DNA from: an uncultured Treponema sp.
Lineage (GTDB): Bacteria > Spirochaetota > Spirochaetia > Treponematales > Treponemataceae
Assembly (NCBI GenBank): GCA_963539665.1
Contig: CAUTOX010000002.1
Coordinates: 787-64,786, forward strand
Direction of reading: 5' to 3'
DNA length: 64,000 bases
The notes under the pieces are model-generated. The model was not told the DNA's origin. It did no database searches and worked only from the letters and a program-made list of their open reading frames with translations. How positions within the stretch are numbered: position 1 is the stretch's first letter; the number at the start of each line of letters is the position of its first letter. This document shows positions 1 through 52,450 of the stretch, in pieces. Both the position numbers and the translations under genes were made by a program.

Positions 1-72
1 TTTTGCGCAAACGTCCTCGCTGAACAGGTCGACGAATACCGAATCTTTGTAGCGGCGGTTGTGTTTGGCCAT
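1..72 (-). CDS. First 24 codons of a further Rpn-family (PD-(D/E)XK, TIGR01784-type) nuclease/putative transposase paralog; the rest lies outside the window
   Basis: Reverse complement of 1-72 reads MAKHNRRYKDSVFVDLFSEDVCAK. This is identical to the N-terminus of ORF 190..1068. The gene is truncated by the window edge. Confidence 0.6.
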   Translation of the reverse strand, partial: MAKHNRRYKDSVFVDLFSEDVCAK

Positions 73-189
73 GCCGGTTCCTCCTGTCGGCGGATTTTAA
101 CACAATCGCATGATTTTGTAAGCGGAAAGAAGAGCAATATGCGCCGCAAACAGAAAGCGGAAGCGCCGGCCATCGCTAGTATGCAATAT

Positions 190-1068
190 TTACAGCATCG
201 CAACATCTTCTACGCTGAGGCCGGTTGCCTGTGCAATAACATCAATAGCAATGCCGAGCCGCTTGAGATTACCGGCATCTTCTAACGCTTTTTGATGTAA
301 CCCGTCAGCAAGCCCTCTCTCAACCCCTTGTGCAAAGGCGATTTTGCTGGCTTCTTCGCGCTGCACTTCGATGTCTACGTCATAATCGTATTCTGCTATC
401 AGCATGTTCATTACCTCCCGTGATTTGCGTTGCAGGTAGTCTTTCAAGATGTCGTTTTGGATGCACTCTTTTATTGCATTCCGAAAGCCGTTTTCTGAAT
501 CGAGGGCGATATGACTGCGGACGATCTCGACAAATGCGCTGTATTCGGCGAGGGGGCGGCAGCTTGATACGATTTTGTCCGCCCTGCCGTAGTTTATGTT
601 TATGACGCGGACATACAGCTCCAAACTTGGAGCGGCAGGGCGCGTCATAAATGCGTCAGAAAGTTTAAGCGTATCGCTCGGCGGCAACTGCTCTCGGCCG
701 TTATAGAATAGGTAAAATTCAGGAGTCGGAATCATTTTGAGCGCCCGCAGGTAGCGGTCGCGGGGGCTTTGGATTTGTTCGTACAGGCGTGCGGCGTACT
801 CCAGAAAGCGCAGCGGCATATTGGCGTTGACGGTCGATTGGTGCTCCGCGAGCACGATAATTTTGTTGTCAATCAGGCAGGACACATCGTTGCGGAAGCT
901 CATGTACATAACGCGGTCGAGGCGCAACGGCTTGAGTTCGGCAGATGCGTCAAGGCTTGTGCCGTGCAGGGCGTTGTACAGCGCAAGAAAGTTGTCTTTT
1001 GCGCAAACGTCCTCGCTGAACAGGTCGACGAATACCGAATCTTTGTAGCGGCGGTTGTGTTTGGCCAT
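190..1068 (-). CDS. Rpn-family recombination-promoting nuclease / putative transposase (PD-(D/E)XK; TIGR01784 'T. denticola putative transposase' type)
   Basis: 292-aa ORF. The N-terminus YKDSVFVDLFS...NFLALYNAL...IIVLAEHQST...MPLRFLEY is characteristic of the Rpn/Transposase_31 family. A paralog lies at 45076..45978. Confidence 0.8.
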   Translation of the reverse strand: MAKHNRRYKDSVFVDLFSEDVCAKDNFLALYNALHGTSLDASAELKPLRLDRVMYMSFRNDVSCLIDNKIIVLAEHQSTVNANMPLRFLEYAARLYEQIQSPRDRYLRALKMIPTPEFYLFYNGREQLPPSDTLKLSDAFMTRPAAPSLELYVRVININYGRADKIVSSCRPLAEYSAFVEIVRSHIALDSENGFRNAIKECIQNDILKDYLQRKSREVMNMLIAEYDYDVDIEVQREEASKIAFAQGVERGLADGLHQKALEDAGNLKRLGIAIDVIAQATGLSVEDVAML

Positions 1069-3923: not shown

Positions 3924-4005
3924 AACTCTTTTTATCAAACTAAACGCACTTGCAGTGTGCGCCGTAAAGCCAAATCGCTTGCGGCTCACGCTGTGCTAAC
4001 AAACA

Positions 4006-4037
4006 AAAGCAGTTGCCCCATGCGGCAACTGCTTTTT
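4006..4037 (+). terminator. Rho-independent terminator downstream of the beta-barrel gene
   Basis: AAAGCAGTTGCC (4006-4017), a 6-nt loop, GGCAACTGCTTT (4024-4035), running into a T stretch. Confidence 0.7.
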
Positions 4038-4399
4038 GCATTTATAGAAGAATTAGCCGCTGGCAGTTTTCGTAAATAAAATAAATACCGCTTTACCGAT
4101 GCTTTTTTGCACTCTGCCCCGCCCGCTCCAAGTTCCCCCACAAGAAAAAGCGCACCTTTAAGCAGTATTCTATATTCCTTACGCATACGGAATTTTATTC
4201 ACGCGGAGGCTACCCCGACACTCTGCGTCAAGGGGTTTTGATTGACAGCGCACTTTTTTACTTATAATATGGCGGCCAAACAAATGGGAAGAGAACAAAT
4301 TGAGCGAGTAATCCCGTGCGGCAGCGCACCGCACACCGTTCAAGACACTGCCGGAATGCGGCGTTTCCGTAAAATGCAGCGGCAGAGGAGGCGTCGAAA

Positions 4400-5161
4400 T
4401 TGTCAAGTTTTATCACATTGTGCTGTCTTTTTACCTGCGTTGCATGGCCTTCCTTCTTAAACACGCTCGCATATCCGCTCAACATCCGCTGGAGCCGGAC
4501 AATTTCGCAATACATTGTAAAAGTACTCGCTCCGCGCGTATTCGCCATTCTCACTTGCTATCGGAATTTTCATTTTTTTGCCTACAATGACAGCAAAAAA
4601 CTCCTGCCGGAACAGTTTATCATCATTTCGAACCATCAAAGCCTTTTCGACATTCCCGCTTACATGAATTTTTTGCGCAACAAGGAACTGCGCTTTGTCG
4701 CAAAAGACAACCTTGCGCGGCACATTCCGCTTGTTTCAGAAATGTTGCGCGCACAGGAACATTGCATGATACCCCGCCGCGGCAGTCCGATGCTTGCAAT
4801 GAAAGTTGTCGAACGGTTTGGCCAGCGAATCCGCGAGCGGAATCAAATTCCCGTGCTTTTTCCGGAAGGTACGCGCTCGCGAGACGGCAACGTCGGCCGG
4901 TTTTATTCTGCGGGATTCCGGAAACTCTCCGAAACGCTCAATCTGCCGGTTGCGGTATGCGCACTCGACGGCGGTTGGCGAATCCGCGACATCGGCAACA
5001 TCATGCGCCGCCTGAAAAACGGCTGCTACCGCATCAAGGTTGTGAAAATCTACCCCGCCCCGCAAACAAAAGAAGCGGCCGCTGCAATTCTTGAAGAAAG
5101 CCGCGCGCTCATTCAGCGGCAGCTCAATGAATGGCGTACGCTCGGAACAGATAAAAAATAA
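4400..5161 (+). CDS. plsC: 1-acyl-sn-glycerol-3-phosphate acyltransferase
   Basis: HX4D motif NHQSLFD and the FPEGTRSRDG motif. There is an N-terminal hydrophobic segment. The exact start is uncertain. Confidence 0.75.
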   Translation: MSSFITLCCLFTCVAWPSFLNTLAYPLNIRWSRTISQYIVKVLAPRVFAILTCYRNFHFFAYNDSKKLLPEQFIIISNHQSLFDIPAYMNFLRNKELRFVAKDNLARHIPLVSEMLRAQEHCMIPRRGSPMLAMKVVERFGQRIRERNQIPVLFPEGTRSRDGNVGRFYSAGFRKLSETLNLPVAVCALDGGWRIRDIGNIMRRLKNGCYRIKVVKIYPAPQTKEAAAAILEESRALIQRQLNEWRTLGTDKK

Positions 5162-5200
5162 CGCAGTACGCGCATCATCGTTCCGGCAATTCGGCTCTTT

Positions 5201-5752
5201 TTGATGCAGCGTCCAAACGAGGAAAATATGAACCGTTCGCCTCAGATTAGAACTGCGCTGCCGAGCGATTTACGGGCTATTCAGGAAATTTTTGCCCGCG
5301 CGCGCCGCTTTATGCAGCAGTCAGGCAATCCGAATCAATGGGAATCCGGCTATCCTTCCGACACCCTTATCCTGCATGACATCGTAGAACAAAATTGTTA
5401 TGCCATCGCATCCGGCGCAACCGTTTACGGCGTTTTTTCGCTGATTGCCGGCGCCGACCCGACGTATGCGGAAATAAACGGGGAATGGCTTAACGACGAG
5501 CCGTATGCAGCGTTGCACCGCGTCGCCGCCAGCGGTGAATCGAGCGGCATTTTTTCCGCCGCGGCGGCTTACGCAAAGACGCGCCACGACAATCTCCGCA
5601 TCGACACGCACCGCGACAACAAAATCATGCAGCATCTCATAAGCAAACACGGCTTCCGCTTTTGCGGCATCATCACAATCGAGAAAAATAATGTGCAGGG
5701 GAACAAAACAAGCGCACGGCTCGCCTATCAATGGAGCCGAACGGCAGACTGA
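5201..5752 (+). CDS. GNAT-family N-acetyltransferase
   Basis: 183-aa ORF. Its size and pattern (IRTALPSDLRAIQEIF..., HRVAASGESSGIF..., RIDTHRDNKIMQHLISKHGF) fit small GNAT acetyltransferases. Confidence 0.55.
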   Translation: MMQRPNEENMNRSPQIRTALPSDLRAIQEIFARARRFMQQSGNPNQWESGYPSDTLILHDIVEQNCYAIASGATVYGVFSLIAGADPTYAEINGEWLNDEPYAALHRVAASGESSGIFSAAAAYAKTRHDNLRIDTHRDNKIMQHLISKHGFRFCGIITIEKNNVQGNKTSARLAYQWSRTAD

Positions 5753-5785
5753 ATGCCCGTATATTTTAGCCGCTTGCATACTGCG

Positions 5786-6277
5786 CCGTCCGGTAGACTG
5801 CAATCGGGCAGGCAGACAGTCCGCCGACCGATCGCAATATCATCGCGGCAGCAACCGCCGGATATTCCTCCGTCCCGACCTGCGGCAACGCAGAGGCTCT
5901 TCCGCAAGCACGGAATGCTGCATCGCCAGACAAAAGCCAAACAGCACACACGGCAAGGTCGTGAGAGGTGCAAGGCGCATCATTAACAGCAAATCAGCCT
6001 CGCCCTCCGGTACACTGCAATCGTGCCGCTCGTCAACCAGCCGACCGATCGCAATGTCATCGCGGCCGAAACCGCCGGATATTCCTCCGTCCCGACCTGC
6101 GGCAACGCAGAGGCTCTTCCGCAAGCACGGAATGCTGCATCGCCAGACAAAAGCCAAACAGCACACACGGCAAGGTCGTGAGAGGTGCAAGGCGCATCAT
6201 TAACAGCAAATCAGCCTCGCCCTCCGGTACACTGCAATCGTGCCGCTCGTCAACCAGCCGACCGATCGCAATGTCAT
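5786..6277. repeat. Tandem repeat, 217-bp unit, about 2.3 copies
   Basis: The string CCGGTAcACTGCAATCG...GACCGATCGCAATgTCATCGCGGC recurs at about 5789, 6006 and 6223. ORF-track entries repeat with a 217-nt offset (5968 vs 6185). Confidence 0.85.
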
Positions 6278-6324: not shown

Positions 6325-7620
6325 TTATTCATCCATCAGCGTGATTTCGACGCGGCGGTTGCGCTTTCTGCCGGATTCGGTGGCATTGGACGCGGCTGGT
6401 TCGGAGGCTCCTTTTCCAGCGGTGAATATGCAATCGGACTTCCGAACGCCTAAGCCGCTCAGGTAATCTGCAACCGACGCCGCCCGTTCTTCGGACAGCT
6501 GCTGCTGAGAGGCAACTGTCCCCCGATCAGCGCAATGGCCGGTAACGAGGATGTCATTGCTGAAATTTTTAAGAATATCGGCAATACCGTCCAGTTTTTT
6601 CTTTTCACCGGCGGACAAGTCGGCGGAATCCGCCTCAAACTGGATGTCCTCCATGATTATGGTCAGCCCTTTTTTGCTTTCCGCAACCTGCACATCCTTT
6701 AAGCCCAGCTCATTTACCCGCTCGGTAATTTTAGAAAGATTCTCTTTTGTCGCGCTGCGCGTGTATTCCGTTACTTCCGCGCGCGCCGTTCCCTGAAACG
6801 TAACCGTCTCCCCGCCAAACGTCTGCATGAATATCCGAAAAGATTCGCTGTAATGGTCAATAGCCCCGCGCTCGTTGTCCCACCAAATCTTCTGATTGGA
6901 TTGCCCCGCTGTTACCGCAGGAAGATGACGCTTGTCCGCACCGGAAGCAGCCGCCGGACTTTCAAAATACAAATTGTACTGAACTTCAATGAGGCTCAAT
7001 ACCGTTCCGTCCGCCTGCCGCGCATCTCCCTTGTACTCGTACGAAGCGACAAACGGAACTTTATACGGATGGGGAATCCCGAACGTTCGCCGCAAATCAT
7101 GCGCTTCGGAGCCTTCCGCAGTCCACTTTGCGCCCGCTCGCAGCGGTTCAGCAGGAAAAACCGGAACATTCCGCACGGTCGGCATAAAGTAATTATCGCC
7201 GATTTTATATTTGCCGTCCGCCGTGCGGGAAAACACGCTCCGATATTCCTCTCCCCATGTGAAATTCCCCGCACCGCGCGTAACAGTAGAATTCTCGGAA
7301 GTCATAAAATGCACCTGCTCGGTACTTGTCCCCGCTGCATCGACATCCGTTACCGTTGCTGTGATGCGGTTGAGAATGTCTGCGTGATGATGGAAGTTGC
7401 CATTGAAGAACACATCTTCGTAGACGCTGGAAAGGATGCGGCTTTGCGCGCCCTTTTTGAATTTGAACGAAAAGGTCTTCGCCGCGCCATCCGTAATGAG
7501 CGGCGCATTGTCCGCATCCCTGCGGTTTGCTTCCGAATTGAATTGAGTCTGCGCTCCGATACCGGATATAAAAACGGCCAGCATACCAAGAGCTGCGCCA
7601 AACATCCGTATATTCATCAT
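6325..7620 (-). CDS. OmpA-family protein (signal peptide, C-terminal OmpA-like peptidoglycan-binding domain)
   Basis: N-terminal signal sequence MMNIRMFGAALGMLAVFISGIGA. The C-terminus LVTGHCADRG...SEERAASVADYL...GKGASEP...NRRVEITL is an OmpA_C-like signature. Confidence 0.75.
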   Translation of the reverse strand: MMNIRMFGAALGMLAVFISGIGAQTQFNSEANRRDADNAPLITDGAAKTFSFKFKKGAQSRILSSVYEDVFFNGNFHHHADILNRITATVTDVDAAGTSTEQVHFMTSENSTVTRGAGNFTWGEEYRSVFSRTADGKYKIGDNYFMPTVRNVPVFPAEPLRAGAKWTAEGSEAHDLRRTFGIPHPYKVPFVASYEYKGDARQADGTVLSLIEVQYNLYFESPAAASGADKRHLPAVTAGQSNQKIWWDNERGAIDHYSESFRIFMQTFGGETVTFQGTARAEVTEYTRSATKENLSKITERVNELGLKDVQVAESKKGLTIIMEDIQFEADSADLSAGEKKKLDGIADILKNFSNDILVTGHCADRGTVASQQQLSEERAASVADYLSGLGVRKSDCIFTAGKGASEPAASNATESGRKRNRRVEITLMDE

Positions 7621-7816
7621 TCACTCCTCCGCACCGCGCATAATTGCCGCCCGCAAACCGGTTGGTTACCAGCAGTTGCAGCATTCTCTACCAGCCTGTT
7701 TCCGCCGGACATTCCGCCCCGAGCGCGTTTGGCTTGGGAAAACGCGCTTAAAACTAAACTGGCAGCAGGCTGGACAATACCCTATCATCTTTACGGAAAA
7801 ATTCTCTTAGGCCGCC

Positions 7817-9934
7817 TCAGACTTTAAACTGCCGTACTTCTCCAACCAATCCTTCGATGCTCTCTTTATTCTTCCGCGCCAGCTCATTGACTTCCTGTAC
7901 CGCGTTGTTGATCTGCGTAACGCCCGCGCTCATTTCGCTCATGCTGTTGCTGATTACGCGGGTAAGTTCGTCGAGCTTCTGCATCTCTACAGCAGCGCCC
8001 TTTCCGCCTTTCAGCATTTGACCGGAACCATCTTTGACTTCGGCAGTAACGGCGCTGATGGTTTTGATTGCTGCCAACACTTCGCGGCTGCCGTTTTCCT
8101 GTTCTTTCATCGCCATTGTCAGCTCTGCGCTCATGCCGCGCACATTTTCGGCAAGTTGGAAAATGGCGTTGAACTTTTCTTCGACAGTTTTAGAGCTTGC
8201 GGACAGACCGGCGATTTCGTCGCTGAGCTTTTTCAGCGTGTCGGTAATAGCCTTGCCCTGCGCGGAAGATTCTTCCGCCAGCTTCCGAATCTCATCGGCC
8301 ACAACCGCAAAGCCTTTTCCGGCTTCTCCTGCGTGAGCAGCTTCAATAGCGGCGTTCATAGCGAGCAGGTTGGTCTGGCTTGCAATATTCTGAATGATGC
8401 TCGATGCTTCGATGAGGCCGCCGGAGGCTTCGGCAATTTTCTGAGTAACGGTATTTGAGTTTTGGAGCGTCGTTTTACCTTCGGAGGTAGCAGTTGCGAG
8501 CATTTTCACCATATTGTCGCTTTTTTCCAGCGACTGCGTAACGGATGCAATATTGGCGACCATCTGATCTACGGAAGAAGATGACTGGGCAACGCTTGCC
8601 GCCTGCGTTTCGATGCTGTTGTCTAGCTGATTAATCGTGCGGACAATTTCTTCGATGGCAGCGGCAGTTTCGGAAACGCTTGCCGCTTGAGTCATGGCTT
8701 GTTGCTTTACCCCTGCAATATTCGCGCTAATTTGGTGCACTGCGCTGGCCGTCTCCGTCATGTTGGCTGCAAGCTCATTGCCAAGCTCTCCCATCATAGT
8801 GCTGGCAACGCCGACTTGCTTGATAGACGCACCAATTTTCTTGATTGTTTCGTTGAAATAGTTGGATAGATCCGTTATTTCATCGTTCCCCTTAACCGGC
8901 AATCGTGCCGTAAGATCGCCTTCTCCTTGCGCGATATTTTGTAAGCCCGCAACGGTTTTATTCAGCGGCTTAATGAGTATTACCTGTATAAATACCGTAA
9001 CAATGAGAATTAAAACACCGATAGAAAAGACCGCAAGCATGATATTAATAAACAGCACATGATTAAATGTTTCGAAGATAACCCGTTTATCAACTGCAAG
9101 GCAGAGATACATACCGGTTTCGGCAACAGGCGCAGTGATAATAATTTTTTCATCATCTTCAAGCATCCCATTGTTGATTGTTTCCGCAGTAAGATTGAAG
9201 AGCTGCTGTCCAATTATGTTTTTATCCTTATTATTCAAACAAATACCATTTTCATTTATAAGCGACAATGAGTATTCGCTGATGTCGGGAAAGGCGATCG
9301 TAGCAAAATACGCGCTTAAAGGTTCAAGACCAAGATCGATTGTTACTACGCCGAGCTTCTTTTTGTTCCGCGCATCCAATAACGCGGAAGTTATGGTAAT
9401 CATGGGAACGCCGGTTACGGCATCATTATACAGTTCGCTCCAAACATATTTTTTATTGCGGGCAATTCCGTCGTTCTTATACCAGTCAAATTGCTTGTAA
9501 TCATTCTGCTCATTATTGTATTCCCATGTCAGCTTGACAGTTCCGCCATCATCAAACCAGTACGGGCCGTACAATTTTGCGTCCGGCACAACATACGGTT
9601 CAAGCCAATAGCCGCCGCCTACAATAGAAGCGTCGGAAGCCATGGTAATGGCGCTGATAGCGGAGAGTTCTTCCGGATGGTCAAACCCGATACCTGTAAG
9701 CAACATCGTATAATGAACTGCGGCCGCTTCAAATTTGGAAAATATATTTCCATAAATCGTATGCGCTTCTTTTTCAATCCTTCCCGACAAGCCTATCTTT
9801 ATATTATGGATGATTAATTTTGAAAACGCTCTAAAAGTAATAGTACCGAGCATACTTATAATCAGTATAAATAGTCCGATTACGATAGCTGACATCTTAA
9901 ACGACAAGCTGTGTATTTTCCGTGAAAGTTTCAT
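7817..9934 (-). CDS. Methyl-accepting chemotaxis protein (Cache-type periplasmic sensor, HAMP, MCP signalling domain)
   Basis: Two TM segments flank a Cache-like region. HAMP segment: [22 protein letters not shown]. Invariant MCP hairpin: [41 protein letters not shown]. Confidence 0.9.
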
Positions 9935-10546
9935 GTTCGATTCCTCCTTTCGCTTTTTAAAAAATATTCTTAAATAAAAACAGCGCGGTCAGGATACATT
10001 TCGGCATACCTGCGCGTATACCGAAAAAACATCGCTTGTGTGTATAGCCCCATGAATAAAGGCGGCTTTCTAAGACAGCCCCCCTCAACGGCTATTTTGA
10101 ATATAGAATGGACTCTCAAGATGTGGAAGACATCTTTTATCAAAAAAGGCACCTTCGTGCGAGACTTTAAACTTTTCGATTTCTTATGTCAAGTTTTCAA
10201 TTAATTGGTCATTTCGCGGCGTGATTTTTCTCTGCGGCAAGGCTCCGCAATGTTGTTAAACCTTGTTCAATAGTGCAAAGCGAACAGCGGCCTGTCCAGT
10301 GCCCCCATCTTTACGGCAACTGCCGGGCGTTTTCTGCGGAACTGCTTTATCGGAAAAACCTAACGGCAATGCTGCCTGCGCTTCGATGCTTTCTTTCTTC
10401 CGCGGGGCGGCGTGATTTTCAACCAGTTTTCCTGCACGGAAAGCCTGAAGCAGGCGCGCGACAATGTTTAGGCTGTTCGATACAATCCAACCGCTCTGCG
10501 TCCGGCAGACAAAAAAGGCGCCGGAGCGCAGAACTTGTATCTACTA

Positions 10547-42664: not shown

Positions 42665-44905
42665 TTAGCGCGTTCGTATTTCTTGCCATCCCAGCACCCG
42701 CTGCTTCATTCCGGCGATATCCAGCACCCCTAAGGCAAATCCTTTGCGTACCAGCTCAGAGGGAACATACTCGTCGTATTTGTCAAAGACGGGGACTTCG
42801 TTTTCGTACACAAGCTCCAGCGGGTCAAAGTTTTGTGCGGCTTCTTCGGCAATAATGCGATAGAATTCCTGTGCGCTTACCTGCATGGTAAACTGTAGGT
42901 AGTACGGTCTGGACGGACTCAAGCCTTTGAGCCCAAGCCGTGCACCGCAGCGGAGCTTGAGAAAGCGTTCCAACGCAAGAAAGGCATAGCTGCCCAGCTG
43001 AGGAAAGAGCGCCCACATAGAGCCGCCGAGGGAAATGAGCGGGTGAGTGTCCATCCCTGCCTTGCTGAACGTATTCCGCGCTTCCTGCAAACGGCACACG
43101 GCATGGCGCATCAGGTACGGATAGCTTTTCTGTTCGGCAAGAACAGTATGCATCCGTTCCAAGATACAGGTGTGTATATCGCCTGCCACATCACCGAAAT
43201 ACGCAGGGATATTCCCCTTTACCAGCGTACAGTATACCTCGCGGCGCTGGTGATCCACCTCGTCCACTGCCCACACCCTGCCTGCAATAGCTATCTTCTC
43301 GCCCGCAGGCGGCGGTTTGACGATTGTTCCCAGCTCTTCGGAACCGGAACGCACCGTGTATTCGATATTTTCTTGGAACACTGCGTAAAACTTATAATTG
43401 TTGACAACCCGCTCCCCGGTAATCCCGACAATCAGCCCGCCGTTTTCCGTGCGGTTGATATGATCAATAGTGATAAGGTGCCGGAGCAAGGTACGGAAGT
43501 CCTCCTGACTGATGCGGCGGAATACCGAAAGGGTCAGTACTCTGGAGGCCAGCTCCGCCGGTGTCATCTCACCTGAGGAGGCAAGCGTACTCATGGTCTG
43601 GTGATAGAGCAGGGAGAAGGGCAGCTTTTCCGTGCGCGGCGGTTCCACAAAGCGCTCTTCGATATAAAGCTGAACAAGTGCAATTCCTTGAATAAGATAC
43701 CACGGAATCATCTCCGGCAGCATCGCCCGCGCTTCGGGATGATCTTCCCGCATAACAAACCACATTTCCGAAGGAGTGCCGCGCCGTCCGGTACGTCCCA
43801 TACGCTGTAAAAAACCGGAAACGGTAAAGGGTGCATCAATCTGGAATGCCCGCTCCAGTCTCCCGATATCAATCCCCAGTTCCAGTGTAGCGGTAGCGCA
43901 CACACTGATAAGCGAGTCGTCATTCTTCATCTCCTCTTCCGCACTTTCGCGGTACGAAGCGGAAAGGTTGCCGTGGTGAATTAAAAAGCGGTCGGGTTCG
44001 TGATTAGCTTCACAGTATTGCCGGAGGTGCTGGCATACGGATTCGCACTCCTCGCGGGAATTGGTAAACACGAGGCATTTTTTACCGCGGGTATGCTCAA
44101 AGATATAGCCCATCCCCGGGTCTGCGGCCTTGGGGGCAGTATCCGTCGCGGGTTCTACCGTAAGCGCTTCGATGGTAATAGGCTTACCTTCGTCAGCTTG
44201 CGGCTCCGTATTGAAGAAGTGTTCCATCGAAAGCCGCCACACCTCTTTGCCGCCGTCGCATTTGGGGATAACCGTTTCTCTCCCGCTGCCTGCAGCAAGA
44301 AAGGCTCCCGCTTCTTCGGGATCGCCGAGTGTGGCGGAAAGACCAACCCGCCGGGGATTGCAGCCCGCCGTCCGGCAGAGCCGCTCAATTAAGCAAAAGG
44401 TTTGCCCGCCGCGGTCGGCACGCAGCAGGAAGTGGACTTCATCAATGACGACAAAGCGTAGGTCATGGAACAAAGAGGGTATTTCGCTCTGCTTGGTGAT
44501 CATCAGCGCTTCAAGGGATTCCGGGGTGATCTGCAAAATCCCCGCCGGTTTACGGAGCAGCTTCCGTTTTTGGCTTTGCGGCGCATCGCCATGCCATCGC
44601 GTTACGGCGATTCCTGCTTCCTCGCACAGCTCGTTCAGCCTCCCGAACTGATCATTGATGAGCGCCTTGAGCGGAGCGATATACAACACTCCCACCGAGG
44701 CAGACGGCTCTTCGTACAAGAGGCTCAGGATTGGAAAAAACGCCGCTTCGGTTTTGCCGGAGGCGGTGGATGCCGTCAGCAGCACATTGTTATCGGTATT
44801 GAAAAGAGCATCGCCCGCCGCATTCTGCACCGCGCGAAGCGTCTGCCAACCGGAGCGGTAAATATAATCCTGTATAAAAGGGGCGTATTGATTAAAAATG
44901 TCCAT
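42665..44905 (-). CDS. DEAD/DEAH-box SF2 helicase (Lhr-like; SngC-like component of a Shango-type system)
   Basis: Motif I ASTASGKTEAAF, motif II VVIDEVHFL, motif III GLSATLG, motif VI QRMGRTGRRG. There is a long C-terminal extension. Confidence 0.8.
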   Translation of the reverse strand: MDIFNQYAPFIQDYIYRSGWQTLRAVQNAAGDALFNTDNNVLLTASTASGKTEAAFFPILSLLYEEPSASVGVLYIAPLKALINDQFGRLNELCEEAGIAVTRWHGDAPQSQKRKLLRKPAGILQITPESLEALMITKQSEIPSLFHDLRFVVIDEVHFLLRADRGGQTFCLIERLCRTAGCNPRRVGLSATLGDPEEAGAFLAAGSGRETVIPKCDGGKEVWRLSMEHFFNTEPQADEGKPITIEALTVEPATDTAPKAADPGMGYIFEHTRGKKCLVFTNSREECESVCQHLRQYCEANHEPDRFLIHHGNLSASYRESAEEEMKNDDSLISVCATATLELGIDIGRLERAFQIDAPFTVSGFLQRMGRTGRRGTPSEMWFVMREDHPEARAMLPEMIPWYLIQGIALVQLYIEERFVEPPRTEKLPFSLLYHQTMSTLASSGEMTPAELASRVLTLSVFRRISQEDFRTLLRHLITIDHINRTENGGLIVGITGERVVNNYKFYAVFQENIEYTVRSGSEELGTIVKPPPAGEKIAIAGRVWAVDEVDHQRREVYCTLVKGNIPAYFGDVAGDIHTCILERMHTVLAEQKSYPYLMRHAVCRLQEARNTFSKAGMDTHPLISLGGSMWALFPQLGSYAFLALERFLKLRCGARLGLKGLSPSRPYYLQFTMQVSAQEFYRIIAEEAAQNFDPLELVYENEVPVFDKYDEYVPSELVRKGFALGVLDIAGMKQRVLGWQEIRTR

Positions 44906-45075
44906 CGTGTTTTCTCTGTTGAGCAGTGTACCTTCTTGTATACATTTGAATCACCGCCGTTCATGTCAGTACTGAGAATGATGTATCCAGTCAGTTCACC
45001 CGTCGGTTATTCCTCTGCATTCTTAGCGTCTTCACGGTTTATCTTTAAAGTAACCGCGGAAGTACGCGCAGGTAC

Positions 45076-45978
45076 CTATAGCGCTTCGACTTCTGCTGGA
45101 GAGATACCGGCTATTTTGCAAATATCTGTAAGGGGATAGCCCATAGAGAGCATCATTTTTGCCGTTTCGAGGGCTTTTTGACGAGAGCCTTGAGATATTC
45201 CTTGGGATATTCCTTGGGATATTCCTTGAGATATTCCTTGAGCAAAAGCTATTCTGCCTGCTTCTTCTCTCTGTACCGCAATATCGGTATCGTAGTCATA
45301 TTCGGCTACCAACATATTGATTACCTCCCGTGATTTTCGTTGTAGGTATTCTTTTAAGATTCCTTTTTCTATACATATCTTTACTGCATTGGTAAAGCCG
45401 TTTGCGCTGTCGAGTTGGGTTTGTTTTCTTACCTCTTCTACAAACAGGCTGTATTCTTCAAGCGGCTTGCAGGCTGCTAAGACTTTGTTCGCCTTATCTG
45501 TATTGATGTTCAAAACCTGTACAGTCAACTCCAGCGGGGCATGCTCGGGTTTTGTCATAAATGCATCTGAAAGCTTTAGAGTCGCGGTTTCAGGGTAATC
45601 TTCCAGCCCATTGTAAAATACATAGAACTCCGGAGCTGGTATCTTTGATAACTTTCTTAGATATCTGTCTGTTGGTGCTTGTAACTTTTCATAGATCCTT
45701 GCGATGTATTCCAAAAAGCGTAGGGGCATATTCTCGTTTACCGTAGACTGATGCTCCGCAAGAACGATGATTTTATTGTCCACAAGGCAAGACACATCGT
45801 TGATAATGTTCATGTACATGACATTATCAAGGCGTATGTTTTCTACCGGGCATGAAAGCTGTAAATTAGTATTATGCAAGGCATTATAGAGTGATAAAAA
45901 GTTCTCTTTAGCTTTTTCATCCTCACTGAATAGATCAACGAACACTGAATCTTTATATTTCCTGTTTGCCGTACCCAT
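45076..45978 (-). CDS. Rpn-family recombination-promoting nuclease / putative transposase (PD-(D/E)XK)
   Basis: 300 aa. YKDSVFVDLFSEDEKAKENFLSLYNAL...IIVLAEHQSTVNENMPLRFLEY. Paralog of 190..1068. Confidence 0.8.
   Translation of the reverse strand: MGTANRKYKDSVFVDLFSEDEKAKENFLSLYNALHNTNLQLSCPVENIRLDNVMYMNIINDVSCLVDNKIIVLAEHQSTVNENMPLRFLEYIARIYEKLQAPTDRYLRKLSKIPAPEFYVFYNGLEDYPETATLKLSDAFMTKPEHAPLELTVQVLNINTDKANKVLAACKPLEEYSLFVEEVRKQTQLDSANGFTNAVKICIEKGILKEYLQRKSREVINMLVAEYDYDTDIAVQREEAGRIAFAQGISQGISQGISQGISQGSRQKALETAKMMLSMGYPLTDICKIAGISPAEVEAL
45188..45243. repeat. 12-bp in-frame tandem repeat, about 4.6 copies, encoding (GISQ)4 in the Rpn C-terminal region
   Basis: CCTTGAGATATT / CCTTGGGATATT units run consecutively at 45188-45235, followed by a partial unit. 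Confidence 0.9.
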
Positions 45979-46222
45979 AACTGTTCATCCTATTCCGGCA
46001 AGGATACCGGTCGGTCAAAACTCACCCCGAACCATATGCAAGGATGCACAAGGTTTGTTATAGCATAGACCGCCAGATTTTTAAAGATACATAGAAGACT
46101 TAACCGCCAAAGCACAAAGTACGCTGTTAATTGGTTGTACGTCACTGTATGCAGGAAAAACTATGTAAAAACTCGCTGCTGCGCATTCCTTCGGCCATCC
46201 ATCACTCTTCTGCGCACTCACC

Positions 46223-47554
46223 TTAAATCGTAAACTCGGCATAGTTTTCATCGGTGGTGTCCGATACCGCATCAGACTTTGCGTACGAAAATGTATCGGA
46301 GTTTAGTAGCTCGATAATGCTCATTCCCGGATTTTGGTACAAAATATCCAGCAGCTCGATAAAATCCCGGATTACTTCGCGCGGGGTGATATGCACATCG
46401 GCGCCGATCCGCTCATATTCAATTCTGATAAACGCCGCCAAGTCGTCCGTGGTGATTTTCTGCTCATAGCCGTAGAGACCTGCGTGCATCGCAGCGAGCT
46501 TTTCACAGAGGATCAACATTTCTTCCGCAGTAATCGGGTCAAGCCGGATTACCGGCGCAAGTAAGTCCCGTGCACCGGGCTTGGAAAACTTCCCCTCTGC
46601 AAGACGGGAGCGGAGCGCCTCGTAGCTGTACACACCGCGCCGCTTATCCTCTATCGCCTGCGGTGTCGCCCCCATGATAATACCGAGGTATTTTGCCTTT
46701 CCTTGTAAGGTGTCGTTGTACATGGTGAGGAGTTTTTCGTAATTGTACTGGCGCGTGATGGAGTTGGGAACTTTATAAATATTGACGAGTTCGTCGATCA
46801 TAATCATCATGCCGGAATAACCCGCCAGCCGGAAAAATGTTGCAAAGAGCTTGAGATACTCGTACCAGTCATCATCCGTAATAATGATATTAACACCGAG
46901 TTCTTCCTTTGCTTCGCGCTTGAGGGCATATTCGCCCCGGAACCACCGCACTACTTTTGCTTTCGTTTCATCATCGCTCTTGAGGTACGCATGATAATAG
47001 GCTGAAAGTAATTGAGCAAACTCAAAACCGTGTACCAGCTCGCTCACCGAAGCGGTTACCGCGTAAATCTTTTGATCGACAAGCGCAGTCAATGCCGGAT
47101 CTCCGGGTTGAAGCCCGCTTTCTTGCAAGGCTTCACTTTGCACGGTGCTGATCCACCGCTCCAATATCAGCGTGAGTGCACCGCCCTCCGGTTTTGTCTT
47201 TGTGGAAAGATTCCCGATCAACTCGCGATAAGTTGCAAGCCCCTGTCCCCGCGTTCCTTGCAGCCTCCGTTCCGGCGACAGGTCTGCATCCGCAACAATG
47301 AACCCGCGATCCATCACATAATTCCGGATAGTTTGCAGTAAAAAACTCTTTCCCGCTCCATACCGCCCGACAATAAAGCGGAACGAAGCGCCGCCTTCGG
47401 AGATAATATCAACATCATGCAGCAAGGCTTGAATTTCATTTTTCCTACCGACGGTGATATACGGCAGCCCGATACGGGGCACTACACCGCCTTTTAAAGA
47501 ATGCAATACCGTCTGCGCAATCCGCTTTGGAACTTTTCTTTCCGCTTCGTTCAT
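46223..47554 (-). CDS. DUF2791/BrxD-like ATP-binding protein (SngB-like)
   Basis: 443 aa. The N-terminus LKGGVVPRIGLPYITVGRKNEI, then Walker A VGRYGAGKSFLL and Walker B MMIMIDELV, match the DUF2791 'BREX system ATP-binding' architecture. Confidence 0.75.
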   Translation of the reverse strand: MNEAERKVPKRIAQTVLHSLKGGVVPRIGLPYITVGRKNEIQALLHDVDIISEGGASFRFIVGRYGAGKSFLLQTIRNYVMDRGFIVADADLSPERRLQGTRGQGLATYRELIGNLSTKTKPEGGALTLILERWISTVQSEALQESGLQPGDPALTALVDQKIYAVTASVSELVHGFEFAQLLSAYYHAYLKSDDETKAKVVRWFRGEYALKREAKEELGVNIIITDDDWYEYLKLFATFFRLAGYSGMMIMIDELVNIYKVPNSITRQYNYEKLLTMYNDTLQGKAKYLGIIMGATPQAIEDKRRGVYSYEALRSRLAEGKFSKPGARDLLAPVIRLDPITAEEMLILCEKLAAMHAGLYGYEQKITTDDLAAFIRIEYERIGADVHITPREVIRDFIELLDILYQNPGMSIIELLNSDTFSYAKSDAVSDTTDENYAEFTI

Positions 47555-47805
47555 GTTATTTTATCTCCCACTATCCAGGACAACCGCATACGAATATTTT
47601 AAGCAGTTGTCTTCATTTTGTGCGAAATTTTTGAGAAAATTTCGCACAGGTTATTTTAAAAGCATAGAGCAATCGCATCAGAAGTGTAGATCGAATTCCG
47701 CAAAATAATAGGTTGGGCAACCATTTGAGATGCAACGCATCGAAATTCTGGTTGAACGGCCTATTATTTTGCGGGGGATTTACAATAGCCTCTGATGCGA
47801 TTGCC

Positions 47806-49923
47806 CTATCCCAATATCCCGATAATATCATCACGATAATCTTCCACAAGGGTAATTGTTTTACCGTCGCATTCTACCACCGTATCGCCGATAAGATCAA
47901 ACAATGCCTCGTTGATAGCATCGGCGATAACGCTCGGCATTCCATGCTGTGCTGCAATCAATTCCTGCACCGGCTCTCCGCGGAGCAGCATTTGCATCAA
48001 CTGGGTCTGCATACTATCCAATGGAAGAGCTTGTGCCCCCTTCATCGCTTGTTGGTATTCCCCGTGATTGTCGAGCAGATTTGTCTGACTCTGCGTTGTC
48101 GCCTTTTCTGCTGCGCCCGTATCATCTTGAGCGATAGGTGGTGGACTTTCTTTTTGTTTTACAGAAATAACCGCACGGTCTACCGCTCCAAGCTTCTCTT
48201 CTTCTGTCAAAAGACTGGACTGCGTTTTGAGCGCATCCTGTCGGATTTTATTCAGACCGGAAAAGTCAATCGTAATCTTCTGCCGCGCGGCTTCGATTTT
48301 GGCTTTTCGATCCGCTTCAATAACAGCTTCAATGTAGGGGACTGCCCATGCCGCTTCTTTCCGCTCTTTTAATGGATGTTTCGTTTTTAGATAGAGGCGT
48401 AAGCGCCGGTCGGTTTCATGGAGAAGATCGACGAGCCGCTGTTTTTGAAAAGAAGACTTCTGATATGACCGTATATACCATTCTTTATTCTTAAAAATAT
48501 ACGAGCGGCAGGAAGTCAATTCATACGTAAAGGATTTTTTTATTTCCTTGTTATGAAAAAATACACCGCTCAGAGGATACCATGGTGTGGAACTCCGAAT
48601 ACCGAAGCACAGCCTAAAAAGAGTTTGTCCATTTTCACGGTACTGTGCCGTAACGAGGCGAAATACTGCGGCAAAGAGTTTGACTGCTTCCGCGCCATAC
48701 AGCTGTATCACCGTTGATTCGGCGGTTTTCTTTTTGCCGAACTTACAAAGCGCCTTAAACACTTCGGCATCGCTGTATTTTTTAGGATGGCGCAAAATTT
48801 CAATCTCTGCATCTTCTTCCAACAATTCTTGATCAATATAAAGGCGCGCTGTTGTCGGCTCGATATTGTTCACTACGGCAAACTCCAGCGCCCATTCATG
48901 CAGTCTTTTTTGCAGAGTTTGACCGCCAAGTCCGGCATCGATATAGGCTCTTTCAAATTCTTGTATTTTTCTCAGACTGTCTTCCGCAGAGACCGCTCCG
49001 ATTCCATTCAACAGCTCTAACAGATAAATAAAAACAAAAGCTTCGCAGTGTTTTTGAAAATTCCCTTTCCGCAGTTCTGTCCGCCACGTAAAATATCCGC
49101 GCAGCTGCTTTATGGATAAATCATGATAGGTCATAAAACCATAGCTATATAGGTCTCCATACCAAGGGACATTATCTTCATAGTCCTCCATGAACTTCCC
49201 CTGTATATAGAAGTTTTTGTATCTCAATTCAAAAGAAAGAAGGAACCTCTCTTGGTAAAGAGCCTGCATCTTGCGTATTTGCTCAGGAACCGCCTGTTTC
49301 TTTTTTTGAACTTTTGCTTTTTTCTCTGTTTTTGAATTTGCATCTCCTATCTGCTGTTGCTTCTGATTTTTACCATATAAAGGCGTTTCCTTGTATTGCG
49401 TCTTCTCATGAATATCCGCATGGAGGACTAGCGTGCATCCTTTTTGTTCATCGAATGCCTCGCCCCCGCCCGGTGCCGTTTGAACTGCTGCTCCTGAAAT
49501 TACCGGTTCAGGCAATGCTTGAGCAGAAAACTTTGAGTGCGCTTCATCGCGTGTATTTGAGGGCTGATCAGTATTGTTCGTATTATGGGAAGGATGATTT
49601 TCTGCATAAAAAAGCACTGCTGCCATGTGTTTGCAATTATTACCACTTGTCGCATGAGGGCACGAGCAGTCCATATTGGAAACGCCGCCATCGGAAAGGG
49701 ATATGCTGACAGTGTAGATTTCAGAGCCCGCTACGTTTGCACGGATTTTTTGCTCGTTCCTCTCGAATGAAGCAACACAGCCGTGCTTGTAATAGTTCAA
49801 TCCGCGATTTAGTATTTTATCAGCAAATAAAGCGTTCCAATCCATAAGCCGGTATGCTAACACAACATGACTTCTTGTCAATATACGACAAAACCGATTG
49901 GAAAAATACCATATTAGAGCCAT
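47806..49923 (-). CDS. SWIM zinc-finger + TerB-N + TerB-C domain protein (SngA-like)
   Basis: SWIM CxCxnCxH motif: MDCSCPHATSGNNCKHMAAVLF. A low-complexity linker follows. TerB-N-like block: HDLSIKQLRGYFTWRTELRKGNF...FVFIYLLELLNGIG. TerB-C-like tail: LDSMQTQLMQMLL...IADAINEALFDLIGDTVVE. The more likely start is MDWNALF at 49845. Confidence 0.7.
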   Translation of the reverse strand: MALIWYFSNRFCRILTRSHVVLAYRLMDWNALFADKILNRGLNYYKHGCVASFERNEQKIRANVAGSEIYTVSISLSDGGVSNMDCSCPHATSGNNCKHMAAVLFYAENHPSHNTNNTDQPSNTRDEAHSKFSAQALPEPVISGAAVQTAPGGGEAFDEQKGCTLVLHADIHEKTQYKETPLYGKNQKQQQIGDANSKTEKKAKVQKKKQAVPEQIRKMQALYQERFLLSFELRYKNFYIQGKFMEDYEDNVPWYGDLYSYGFMTYHDLSIKQLRGYFTWRTELRKGNFQKHCEAFVFIYLLELLNGIGAVSAEDSLRKIQEFERAYIDAGLGGQTLQKRLHEWALEFAVVNNIEPTTARLYIDQELLEEDAEIEILRHPKKYSDAEVFKALCKFGKKKTAESTVIQLYGAEAVKLFAAVFRLVTAQYRENGQTLFRLCFGIRSSTPWYPLSGVFFHNKEIKKSFTYELTSCRSYIFKNKEWYIRSYQKSSFQKQRLVDLLHETDRRLRLYLKTKHPLKERKEAAWAVPYIEAVIEADRKAKIEAARQKITIDFSGLNKIRQDALKTQSSLLTEEEKLGAVDRAVISVKQKESPPPIAQDDTGAAEKATTQSQTNLLDNHGEYQQAMKGAQALPLDSMQTQLMQMLLRGEPVQELIAAQHGMPSVIADAINEALFDLIGDTVVECDGKTITLVEDYRDDIIGILG

Positions 49924-49943: not shown

Positions 49944-52450
49944 AGGATTTAATTTTGCAGTCCGCCGTCCTCCGGTGTGTTTGTGTAAACCTGCGAGGGG
50001 GAAATGCGTTGGGGCGGGCGGGATGAATTTTCCGGCGGAGTTAATTTTGCAGTCTGCCTACATCCGGCGTGTTTGGCGCAAACTGGCGAGAGAGGAATAC
50101 GTTGGGGCGGGCGGATGGATTTTTTCAGACGGATTTAGCTTTACCATCCGCTTGCCTCCGGCGTGTTTGGCGCAAAACGGCGAAAGGGGATGCGCTGAGG
50201 CTGGTGGGATGGATTTTTCTGACGGATTTAATTTTACCGTCCGCTTGCATCCGGTTTATTTGGCGCAAACCGACAAGAGGGAATGCGTTGGTGCGGGTGA
50301 GATGGATTTTTCCAGCGGAGTTAATTTTACCGTCTGCCTGCATCCGGCGTGTTTGTGCCAACCGGCGAGGGAGAAATGCGTTGATGCGGGATGGATGGAT
50401 TTTCCGGCAGAGTTAGTTTTACTGGCTGCCTGCATCCGGTTTGTTTGGCGTAAACCGGCAAGAGGGAATGCGTTGGGGCGGGCAGGATGAATTTTTCCGG
50501 CGGAGTTAATTTTATCGTCCGCCGGCCTCCGGTGTGTTTGGCGCAAACCAGCGAGAGAGGAATGCATTGGGGCTGCCGGGATGGATTTTCCGGCGGAGTT
50601 AATTTTACTGGCTGCCTGCATCCGGCGTGTTTGTGCAAACCGGTGAGAGAGGGAAATGCGTTGGGGCAGGCGGATGGATTTTTTCCAGCGGATTTAATTT
50701 TATCGTCCGTCTGCATCCAGCATGTTTGGCGCAAAACGGTGAGAGGGGAATGTGTTGGAGTGGGCAGAGGGATTTTTTCCAGCGGATTTAGTTTTACCGT
50801 CCGCCTGCATCCGATTTGTTTGGCGCAAACTGGCGAGAAGGGAATGCGTTGGTGTGAGCGGATGGATTTTTTCAGATGGAGTTAATTTTACCGTCCGCCT
50901 GCATCCGGTGTGTTTGCAACCGGCGAGAGAGGAGTGCGTTGGTGCTGACGGGATGGATTTTTCCAGCGGAGTTAATTTTATCGTCCGCCTGCCTCCGGTG
51001 TGTTTGTGCAAACCGGCAAGAGGGAATGCGTTGGGGCGGGCAGGATAGATTTTTTCAGATGGATTTAATTTTACCGGCCGTCTGCATCCGGCGTGTTTGT
51101 GCAAACCGGTGAGAGGGGAATGCGTTGGGGCGGGATGGATGGATTTTCTGGCGGAGTTAGTTTTATCGTCTGCCTGCATCCGGCGTGATTGGCGTAAACC
51201 GGAGAGAGAGGAATGCATTGGGCGGGCGGATAGATTTTTTCAGATGGACTTAATTTTACCGTCCGTCTGCATCCGGCGTGTTTGTGCAAACCTGCGAGAG
51301 GGAATACGTTGGGGCGGGCGGATGGATTTTTCAGATGGATTTAATTTTATCGTCCGCCGGCCTCCGGCGGAGTTAGTTTTACTGGCTGCCTGCATCCGGT
51401 GTGTTTGTGCCAACCGGCGAGGGAGAAATGCGTTGGTGCTAGCGGGATGGATTTTCCGGCGGAGTTACTTTTATCGTCCGCCTGACACCGGTTTGCGTAT
51501 GCAAAACGGTGAGAGGGAATGCGTTGGTGTGGGCGGAGGGATTTTTTCCAGCGGATTTAATTTTACCGTCCGCTTGCATCCGGCGTGTTTGGTGCAAAAC
51601 GGTGAGAGGAGGATGTGTTGGTGCGGGCGGGATGGATTTTCCGATGGATTTAATTTTACCGTCCGCCTGCATCCGATTTGTTTGGCGCAAAAAGGCGAGA
51701 GGGAAATACGTTGGGGCTGACGGGATGGATTTTCCGGAGGATTTAGTTTTACCGTCCGCCTGCATCCGATTTGCGTGTGCAAACCGGCGAGAGGGGAATG
51801 TGCGGGTGCTGGCGGGCTGGATTTTTCCGGCGGAGTTAGTTTTACTGCCTGCCTCCGGCGTATTTGGCGCAAACCGGCGAGAGGGGAATGCGTTGGTGCG
51901 GGCGAGATGGATTTTTCTGACGGATTTAATTTTACCGTCCGCTTGCATCCGGCGTGTTTGGCGCAAAACCGGAGAGAGAGTACCGCGCTGGTGCTGGCGG
52001 GATGGATTTTTCCGGCGGAGTTACTTTTGCAGTCCGCCGTCCGCCGGCGTGATTGGCGTAAACCGGAGAGAAAGGAATGCATTGGGCGGGCGGATAGATT
52101 TTTTCAGATGGATTTAATTTTACCGTCCGTCTGCATCCGGCGTGTTTGTGCAAACCGGTGAGAGAGGGAAATGCGTTGGGGCGGGATGGATGGATTTTTC
52201 GGATGGATTTAATTTTACCGTCCGCCTGACTTCGGTTTGCGTGTGCAAACCAGTGAGGGGAGTGCGTTGGTACGGGCGGGATGGATTTTTCCGGCGGAGT
52301 TAATTTTACTGGCTGCCTGCATCCGGCGTGTTTGTGCAAATCGGAGAGAGAGGAATGCGTTGGGGCGGATGGATTTTTTTCAGATGGATTTAATTTTACC
52401 GTCCGCCTGCATCCTATGTGCTTGTGCAACCGGCGAGAGGGAAACGACGC
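49944..52450. repeat. Array of about 27 degenerate tandem units of about 93 bp (hairpin-repeat family, minus orientation relative to the other clusters)
   Basis: Units start near 49947, 50040, 50133, 50226 and so on. Each contains TTAATTTTACCGTCCGCCTGCATCCGGCGTGTTTGTGCAAACCGG..GGGAATGCGTTGGGGCGGGCGGATGGATTTTT. Open reading frames appear in most frames on both strands. Confidence 0.9.

Follow-up and report, generated by a model that had tools for sequence, protein, structure and literature searches.

A Shango operon with a nested rpn gene

The window, by which we mean the whole 64,000-nucleotide stretch of Treponema DNA analysed here, carries on its minus strand a single operon encoding a TerB-domain SngA, an ATPase SngB and a helicase SngC, the composition of the Shango (SngABC) anti-phage system, which is reportedly named after Millman et al. 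2022. All three components are present, ordered sngA-sngB-sngC, and match their models very strongly (Table 1). The operon differs from the canonical system in two respects: sngB and sngC, which normally adjoin or overlap, are here separated by a fourth, unrelated gene, and SngA has an extra N-terminal SWIM finger. The fourth gene, rpn, lies on the same strand as its Shango neighbours in the gap of 1,317 bp between sngB and sngC.

Table 1. Features of the Shango operon and of the segment inserted in it (window coordinates)
Feature	Position	Strand	Evidence
sngA, first Shango operon gene (SWIM + TerB_N + TerB_C)	47806..49923	-	PADLOC SngA E=2.6e-66; Pfam
sngB, BrxC/BrxD-type ATPase	46223..47554	-	PADLOC SngB E=5.4e-190; PF10923 E=7e-168
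ATGGA left copy (5-bp direct repeat), old sngC start codon, now opens a 12-codon relic ORF	46198..46202	-	Empty-site alignment
Inserted segment, 1,292 bp, 42% GC: 219-bp 5' flank + rpn CDS + 170-bp 3' flank	44906..46197	-	Absent from L012 and L014
rpnL, full-length Rpn-family PD-(D/E)XK nuclease, 300 aa	45076..45978	-	TIGR01784, PF04754
Internal Shine-Dalgarno (SD) GGAGG, in R217-E218-V219 codons, 8 nt upstream of ATG (M222)	45324..45328	-	75/76 unique CDS
Predicted rpnS, in-frame internal ORF, 79 aa (M222-L300), putative antitoxin	45076..45315	-	Start conservation, tail homology
12-bp tandem repeat x4.6, encodes (GISQ)4, in both RpnL and RpnS frames	45188..45242	-	Tandem Repeats Finder
Weak terminator-like hairpin, 5-bp stem, just 3' of rpn stop	45054..45071	-	Consensus scan; no commoner than in shuffles
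ATGGA right copy, present sngC start	44905-44901	-	Empty-site alignment
sngC, DEAD/DEAH helicase	42665..44905	-	PADLOC SngC E=1.9e-280

The rpn product aligns with NCBIfam TIGR01784 ('Rpn family recombination-promoting nuclease/putative transposase') over residues 10-299 at 52.7 bits, and thus belongs to this family across its full length, albeit by a narrow margin over the cut-off of 52.1 bits; Pfam PF04754 (YhgA-like) is matched with 24.4 bits (cut-off 21). A total of 5,387 homologs were found at E<=1e-10, those bearing a name being annotated as Rpn family, and residues D61, D67, E75, H76, Q77 and S78 (the D...E-H-Q-S block) are invariant across 48 aligned homologs. An AlphaFold2 model from a 48-sequence, low-diversity alignment was poor (mean pLDDT 50.6). 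Rpn genes are also the subject of Kingston et al. 2017. The GC content of the rpn coding sequence is 41.0%, against 50.2% in sngB, 54.8% in sngC and 49.1% in the genome. Coordinates, family models and composition therefore agree with the first-pass annotation, which had described an AT-rich, 300-aa Rpn/PD-(D/E)XK gene on the same strand between the ATPase and helicase genes.

The genome has just three Rpn copies including the inserted gene. The other two are tandem paralogs at the contig start (window 1-1068; contig 22-1848); they share 63-64% amino acid identity with the inserted Rpn, have a GC content of 52%, and both retain an internal GGGAGGT followed by ATG. Given this level of identity and the difference in GC (41% vs 52%), rpn was not copied from the genome's paralogs, and its closest relatives beyond its own lineage, at 80-84% DNA identity, reside in other Treponema genera. 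Judged by these sequence comparisons, the inserted rpn is a horizontally acquired gene, and apparently neither a Shango component nor a local duplication. The paralog at 190..1068 had been described as lacking the tandem repeat of the inserted gene, which holds for the perfect DNA repeat, but a degenerate four-residue periodicity (GVER-GLAD-GLHQ) remains.

Insertion at the sngB-sngC junction

The orthologous locus was compared in genome contigs and metagenome contigs. Genome contigs were scanned with SngB, the best 80 of about 350 loci were taken, and SngA, SngB, SngC and Rpn were placed in them by tblastn. In about 60 of these best 80 loci, other phyla being represented, sngB and sngC overlap or lie at most 25 bp apart. 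Two Treponema loci, L012 (SngB 98% identical in amino acids, about 96% in nucleotides) and L014 (94% in amino acids), represent empty sites with a spacer of 24 bp. From these empty sites it follows that the rpn segment is an insertion with defined boundaries, which splits sngB from sngC. The suggestion that a selfish paralog had split the operon thus stands for the insertion itself, but not for the source, the inserted gene being only 63-64% identical to the genome's own paralogs.

The sequence ATGGA is single in both empty sites, where it includes the sngC start codon, and borders the insert on both sides in the window. This duplication, taken as a single event, may stem alike from a staggered cut or from a circular intermediate at a 5-bp microhomology. 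A relic ORF of 12 codons derived from the former sngC initiation region is seen at window 46202-46161 on the minus strand (MDGRRNAQQRVFT and a stop). No second copy of the insert flanks was found in the window's own genome, and neither the 401 genomes of the family nor about 108 other Rpn loci gave a match to them. DNA similarity to these other Rpn loci and to 98 of the 401 family genomes starts at the ATG, typically halts at the repeat and never extends past the stop. A search for terminal inverted repeats on the insert was negative, and a promoter and terminator scan gave nothing beyond shuffle expectation. A possible extended -10 element (TGCTATAAC) was noticed in the 5' flank of the insert, by eye only. 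An ORF of 63 aa at 46081..46272 (56 aa in contig L199), which starts within sngB in another frame, was considered spurious.

History of the locus

Look-ups of the closest Rpn proteins led to a metagenome contig of 23.8 kb (L199) which is collinear with the window over sngA-rpn-sngC-coaX-hisS at 95.8% nucleotide identity, and to the shorter contigs L198, L200 and L090, whose junctions are identical to those of the window. The four-gene order is common to the window and these four metagenome contigs; it is fixed in the lineage of the window, and the insertion is old within it. The same gene order in relatives would have marked rpn as an integral component of the operon; the order is indeed conserved within the lineage, but is absent from the nearest other Shango loci.

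In the comparison of the window with L199, dN/dS was 0.04 for sngB, 0.07 for rpn, 0.07 for sngC and 0.32 for sngA, with a synonymous divergence of about 0.09-0.18. Thus rpn, sngB and sngC are under purifying selection, and both rpn and the helicase gene downstream of it have been kept by selection since the insertion. A polar effect on the helicase had been raised in the first-pass annotation; given the low dN/dS of sngC since the insertion, a destructive one is unlikely.

The Shango genes themselves have a mixed history. SngA of the window is only 54-56% identical to the SngA proteins of L011 and L012, whereas their SngB and SngC are 97-99% identical. High-identity sharing of SngA is confined to the C-terminal ~70 aa, which suggests a modular exchange of its SWIM/TerB_N part; matches to other Treponema loci set in again near 48014. 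SngB proteins of at least 83% amino acid identity occur in metagenome-assembled genomes (L015-L089) labelled as Firmicutes, Bacteroidales, Chloroflexi/Anaerolineae, Planctomycetes, Myxococcota, Victivallales and others, mostly from rumen or gut, and SngB is absent from 36 representative genomes of the same genus. For the Shango variant with a window-like SngB, the sequence comparison implies a very recent spread between phyla. Between sngA and sngB, the window has an AT-rich spacer of some 250 bp (47555-47805); L012 has one too, in inverted orientation (window 47809-47664 matches L012 3006-2861 at 72%), and most other Shango loci have merely 10-25 bp or so at this position. Upstream of sngA, window 49945-51000 gives multiple offset self-similar matches to L199 (76-82%), fitting a tandem array of about 93 bp.

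An internal start and a predicted RpnS

The first-pass annotation had pointed to an in-frame Met within ..EVINMLVAEYDYD.. as the possible start of a short, repeat-bearing C-terminal product. This Met is M222 (ATG 45315..45313), 26 residues ahead of the first repeat; it is invariant in the 48-sequence alignment and replaced, by Arg, in one of the 120 listed homologs (P0066). Among 76 unique homologous coding sequences, the SD heptamer upstream of it reads GGGAGGT in 59, AGGAGGT in 16 and AAGAGGT in 1. The codons that form it depart sharply from those used elsewhere in the same genes: Glu at the SD position is GAG in 76 of 76 (19% elsewhere; Fisher p=3e-53), Arg is CGG or AGG in 59 of 59 (30% elsewhere; p=6e-30) and Lys is AAG in 16 of 17 (30% elsewhere; p=8e-8), p-values that overstate independence, the sequences being related. 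Neighbouring synonymous sites vary freely in the same sequences, for example the Arg of Q-R-K three codons upstream. A strong internal SD with its ATG is thus conserved against codon usage. In 49 of 54 unique pairs, the internal start was predicted to pair more strongly with the anti-SD than the start of the full-length gene, with means of -13.2 and -8.5 kcal/mol, respectively (-11.7 and -4.2 for the gene of the window).

Residues 262-299 of Rpn match the crystal structure of RpnA_S (PDB 7TH0; phmmer, E=7e-4), and the RpnA model NF007361 matches residues 263-297; on these matches, the C-terminal tail is a homolog of the crystallised antitoxin. Because the internal GGAGG and ATG are under synonymous constraint and the tail is homologous to RpnA_S, a short C-terminal product starting at M222 is strongly indicated, and what had been proposed for this Met gains weight accordingly from the sequence comparisons. 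In the low-confidence AlphaFold2 model, the repeats lie in a long helix (residues 207-278) with two short helices after it, pLDDT exceeding 80 only in residues 270-300.

In many Treponema, stand-alone RpnS-like cassettes, which start with MNMLVAEYDYD..., were seen 200-400 bp downstream of full-length Rpn genes (for example L142:~980, L148:~1262 and L156:~1128; also G151, G164, G211 and others). The rpn gene of the window has no such cassette downstream.

A four-residue repeat of variable copy number

Tandem Repeats Finder detected in rpn a repeat with a period of 12, 4.6 copies and 95% matches, which bears out the in-frame (GISQ)4 repeat of the first-pass annotation. The repeat had also been thought prone to slippage, and relatives were compared for its copy number, which is not invariant: the orthologous insertions carry four GISQ units in the window, two in L198 and a single one in L199, L200 and L090. 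The length differences between these alleles are exactly 24 or 36 bp, in surroundings that are almost identical, hence the four-residue repeat changes copy number between orthologous copies of rpn. Among the 120 listed homologs (78-95% identity), the region consists of 1-7 G-[I/L/F]-x-x units, and the tail behind them is mosaic and hypervariable.

Other cargo at Shango junctions

In other Treponema Shango loci, the sngB-sngC junction holds different genes. L013 and L010 (SngB 98-99%) have at this position an Rpn gene of a different subfamily (PF12784, PDDEXK_2; E=1.6e-16), located at L013:7537-8288 and L010:4368-5096; its (GMQQ)n repeat has 7 or more units, and the L013 contig breaks off within it. 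The L010 copy is internally degraded and retains its RpnS-like tail ORF. In L011 (T. vincentii OMZ 806, SngB 99%), the junction (7333-10255) holds MazF, a Gly-rich lipoprotein-like ORF, an XRE regulator and RelB-YoeB, and the sngA-sngB junction (1944-5976) a type II methyltransferase and a type IIG restriction-modification (RM) enzyme. Among further Shango loci, an EcoRI-type RM system occupies the sngB-sngC junction in L016, and a RhuM/Fic gene in L026. The left boundaries of the junction insertions differ by a few bases among loci. In the simplest reading, Treponema Shango loci repeatedly gather toxin-antitoxin (TA) and RM cargo at their intergenic junctions. Two Clostridiales loci (L021:3675-4176 and L038:7330-7815) have in common, at the sngB-sngC junction, a GC-rich stretch of about 0.5 kb that seems not to be coding and may be a small repeated element.

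Conversely, about 108 further Rpn-homolog loci were read with their flanks, and only the four contigs of the window's own lineage adjoin Shango genes. Since the junction is filled differently in other Treponema Shango loci, we favour a nested defence module that is independent of Shango over a Shango effector. The recruitment of rpn as an effector, one of the options in the first-pass annotation, is accordingly not favoured, the slot being filled elsewhere by unrelated TA and RM cargo and the other Rpn loci lying mostly away from Shango.

Discussion

A gene-within-gene TA system, RpnL/RpnS, has been described for E. coli RpnA-E, the plasmid-encoded RpnP2 and C. difficile Rpn (Zhong et al. 2023, PMC10400941). 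These rpn genes act as TA and anti-phage modules in which the toxic endonuclease RpnL is blocked by RpnS, whose translation starts inside the gene; the ribosome-binding site for this start in rpnA lies in the K240-E241 codons upstream of M244, and four-residue repeats in a helix common to RpnL and RpnS vary in number among strains and set the cognate pairing (PMC10400941). The genes spread by horizontal transfer and cluster with defence genes, have variable ends without inverted repeats or target-site duplications, and in some cases are followed by additional stand-alone small homologs termed 'RpnSs' (PMC10400941).

The gene of the window resembles these systems in its N-terminal PD-(D/E)XK YhgA-like domain, in an SD placed in a [K/R]-E codon pair shortly ahead of a Met (K240-E241...M244 in E. 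coli, R217-E218...M222 here), in strain-variable four-residue repeats made of one hydrophobic plus polar residues or Gly and predicted in a long helix, and in a hypervariable, HTH-like tail homologous to RpnA_S; its insert lacks terminal inverted repeats and is sited among defence genes, and some Treponema relatives have stand-alone RpnSs cassettes downstream. On the other hand, the protein scores only 25 bits against the RpnA equivalog model, by its tail alone, its repeats begin 26 residues after the Met as compared with 8-20 in characterised RpnS, the insert is bordered by a 5-bp direct duplication resembling a target-site duplication, and the gene lies inside the operon of another defence system, not beside one. 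From its sequence features the rpn gene of the window fits the published RpnL/RpnS type, only its nested position being new. We consider it probable that rpn is an RpnL/RpnS-type TA and anti-phage module which came from another Treponema and was inserted at the sngC start codon of a horizontally mobile Shango operon.

The ATGGA duplication, single in the empty site and present on both sides of the insert, together with the historical annotation of the family as 'putative transposase', could be taken to mean that the segment is an autonomous mobile element, with Rpn as its transposase and a 5-bp target-site duplication. However, the duplication is accompanied neither by terminal inverted repeats nor by common flanks or ends: in the 401 family genomes, the ~108 Rpn loci and the window's own genome, only the coding sequence is matched. 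With just three rpn copies in the genome, and no evidence of autonomous rpn transposition in the published analysis (PMC10400941), a transposon reading of the 1,292-bp insert was rejected, and we regard such an origin as very improbable. Equally remote is a neutral or mildly harmful passenger, that is, a selfish addiction module polar on sngC which degrades Shango function. The insertion did take away the 24-bp sngB-sngC spacer and the native ribosome-binding context of sngC, and the degradation of the other Rpn type in L010 is in keeping with such a passenger, but sngC, sngB and rpn of the window's lineage are intact and have evolved at a dN/dS of 0.04-0.07 over a synonymous divergence of ~0.09-0.18 since the insertion.

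A less remote, if still unlikely, alternative casts Rpn as a co-opted effector or partner of Shango, a system that has no nuclease of its own; rpn would then be co-transcribed with sngB and sngC and licensed by them. Such an arrangement has a precedent in the anticodon nucleases PrrC and RloC, which are embedded in type I RM loci; PrrC is held latent in the EcoprrI type I locus, where it is physically regulated by the host RM enzyme. As in those loci, a putatively toxic nuclease gene is set between the genes of another defence system. In favour of co-option, rpn is on the Shango strand and nothing stronger than a weak terminator-like hairpin divides it from sngC; at least five contigs preserve the four-gene order, with rpn, sngB and sngC under purifying selection; and another Rpn homolog occurs near Shango in L015. 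That L013 and L010 have a second, unrelated Rpn subfamily (PF12784) at this junction might also be more than coincidence. Unlike PrrC, however, Rpn gives no indication of an RM-like coupling, and with its own putative antitoxin frame kept it would be self-contained; the junction is without a gene in about 60 of the best 80 Shango loci, including the nearest (L012 and L014), and holds MazF, RelB-YoeB, RM or Fic genes in sister slots. Close Rpn homologs (60-89% amino acid identity) are otherwise found outside Shango, and Rpn genes in general are known to cluster with defence genes (PMC10400941). Co-option of the PrrC type is retained as a slim chance because two Rpn subfamilies recur at one junction. 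A broader form of this idea, in which the Treponema sngB-sngC junction is a docking slot for toxic effectors (two Rpn subfamilies, MazF and YoeB) whose expression or release is coupled to the Shango ATPase and helicase, is likewise doubtful.

If rpn is, as we prefer, an RpnL/RpnS-type module, then by analogy with the rpn systems of E. coli, plasmids and C. difficile (PMC10400941) RpnL, the full-length protein, would be a toxic DNA endonuclease, and the 79-aa product from M222 would bind RpnL via the long repeat-bearing helix and keep it inactive. RpnS would probably be made in excess of the full-length protein, given its stronger SD. Repeat number would tune the cognate pairing of RpnL and RpnS and diversify under phage pressure, as extrapolated from the same work (PMC10400941). 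The module would presumably act independently of Shango, and the short intergenic junctions would be the sole spots where cargo can land without destroying Shango, hence the site of rpn.

Our analysis would extend the RpnL/RpnS gene-within-gene architecture to Treponema, including its internal start, strain-variable four-residue repeat and hypervariable tail, with unusually clean comparative support in the form of an internal SD conserved at synonymous sites in 76 sequences. The natural allelic series of 1, 2 and 4 repeats at one orthologous locus could be used to test repeat number as a determinant of pairing specificity. The current understanding would be altered only if a functional coupling of Shango and Rpn were demonstrated. 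The nested rpn bears on the annotation of composite defence islands and on the interpretation of Shango: it shows that a defence operon can offer, at its intergenic junctions, slots in which additional defence and TA genes settle as cargo.
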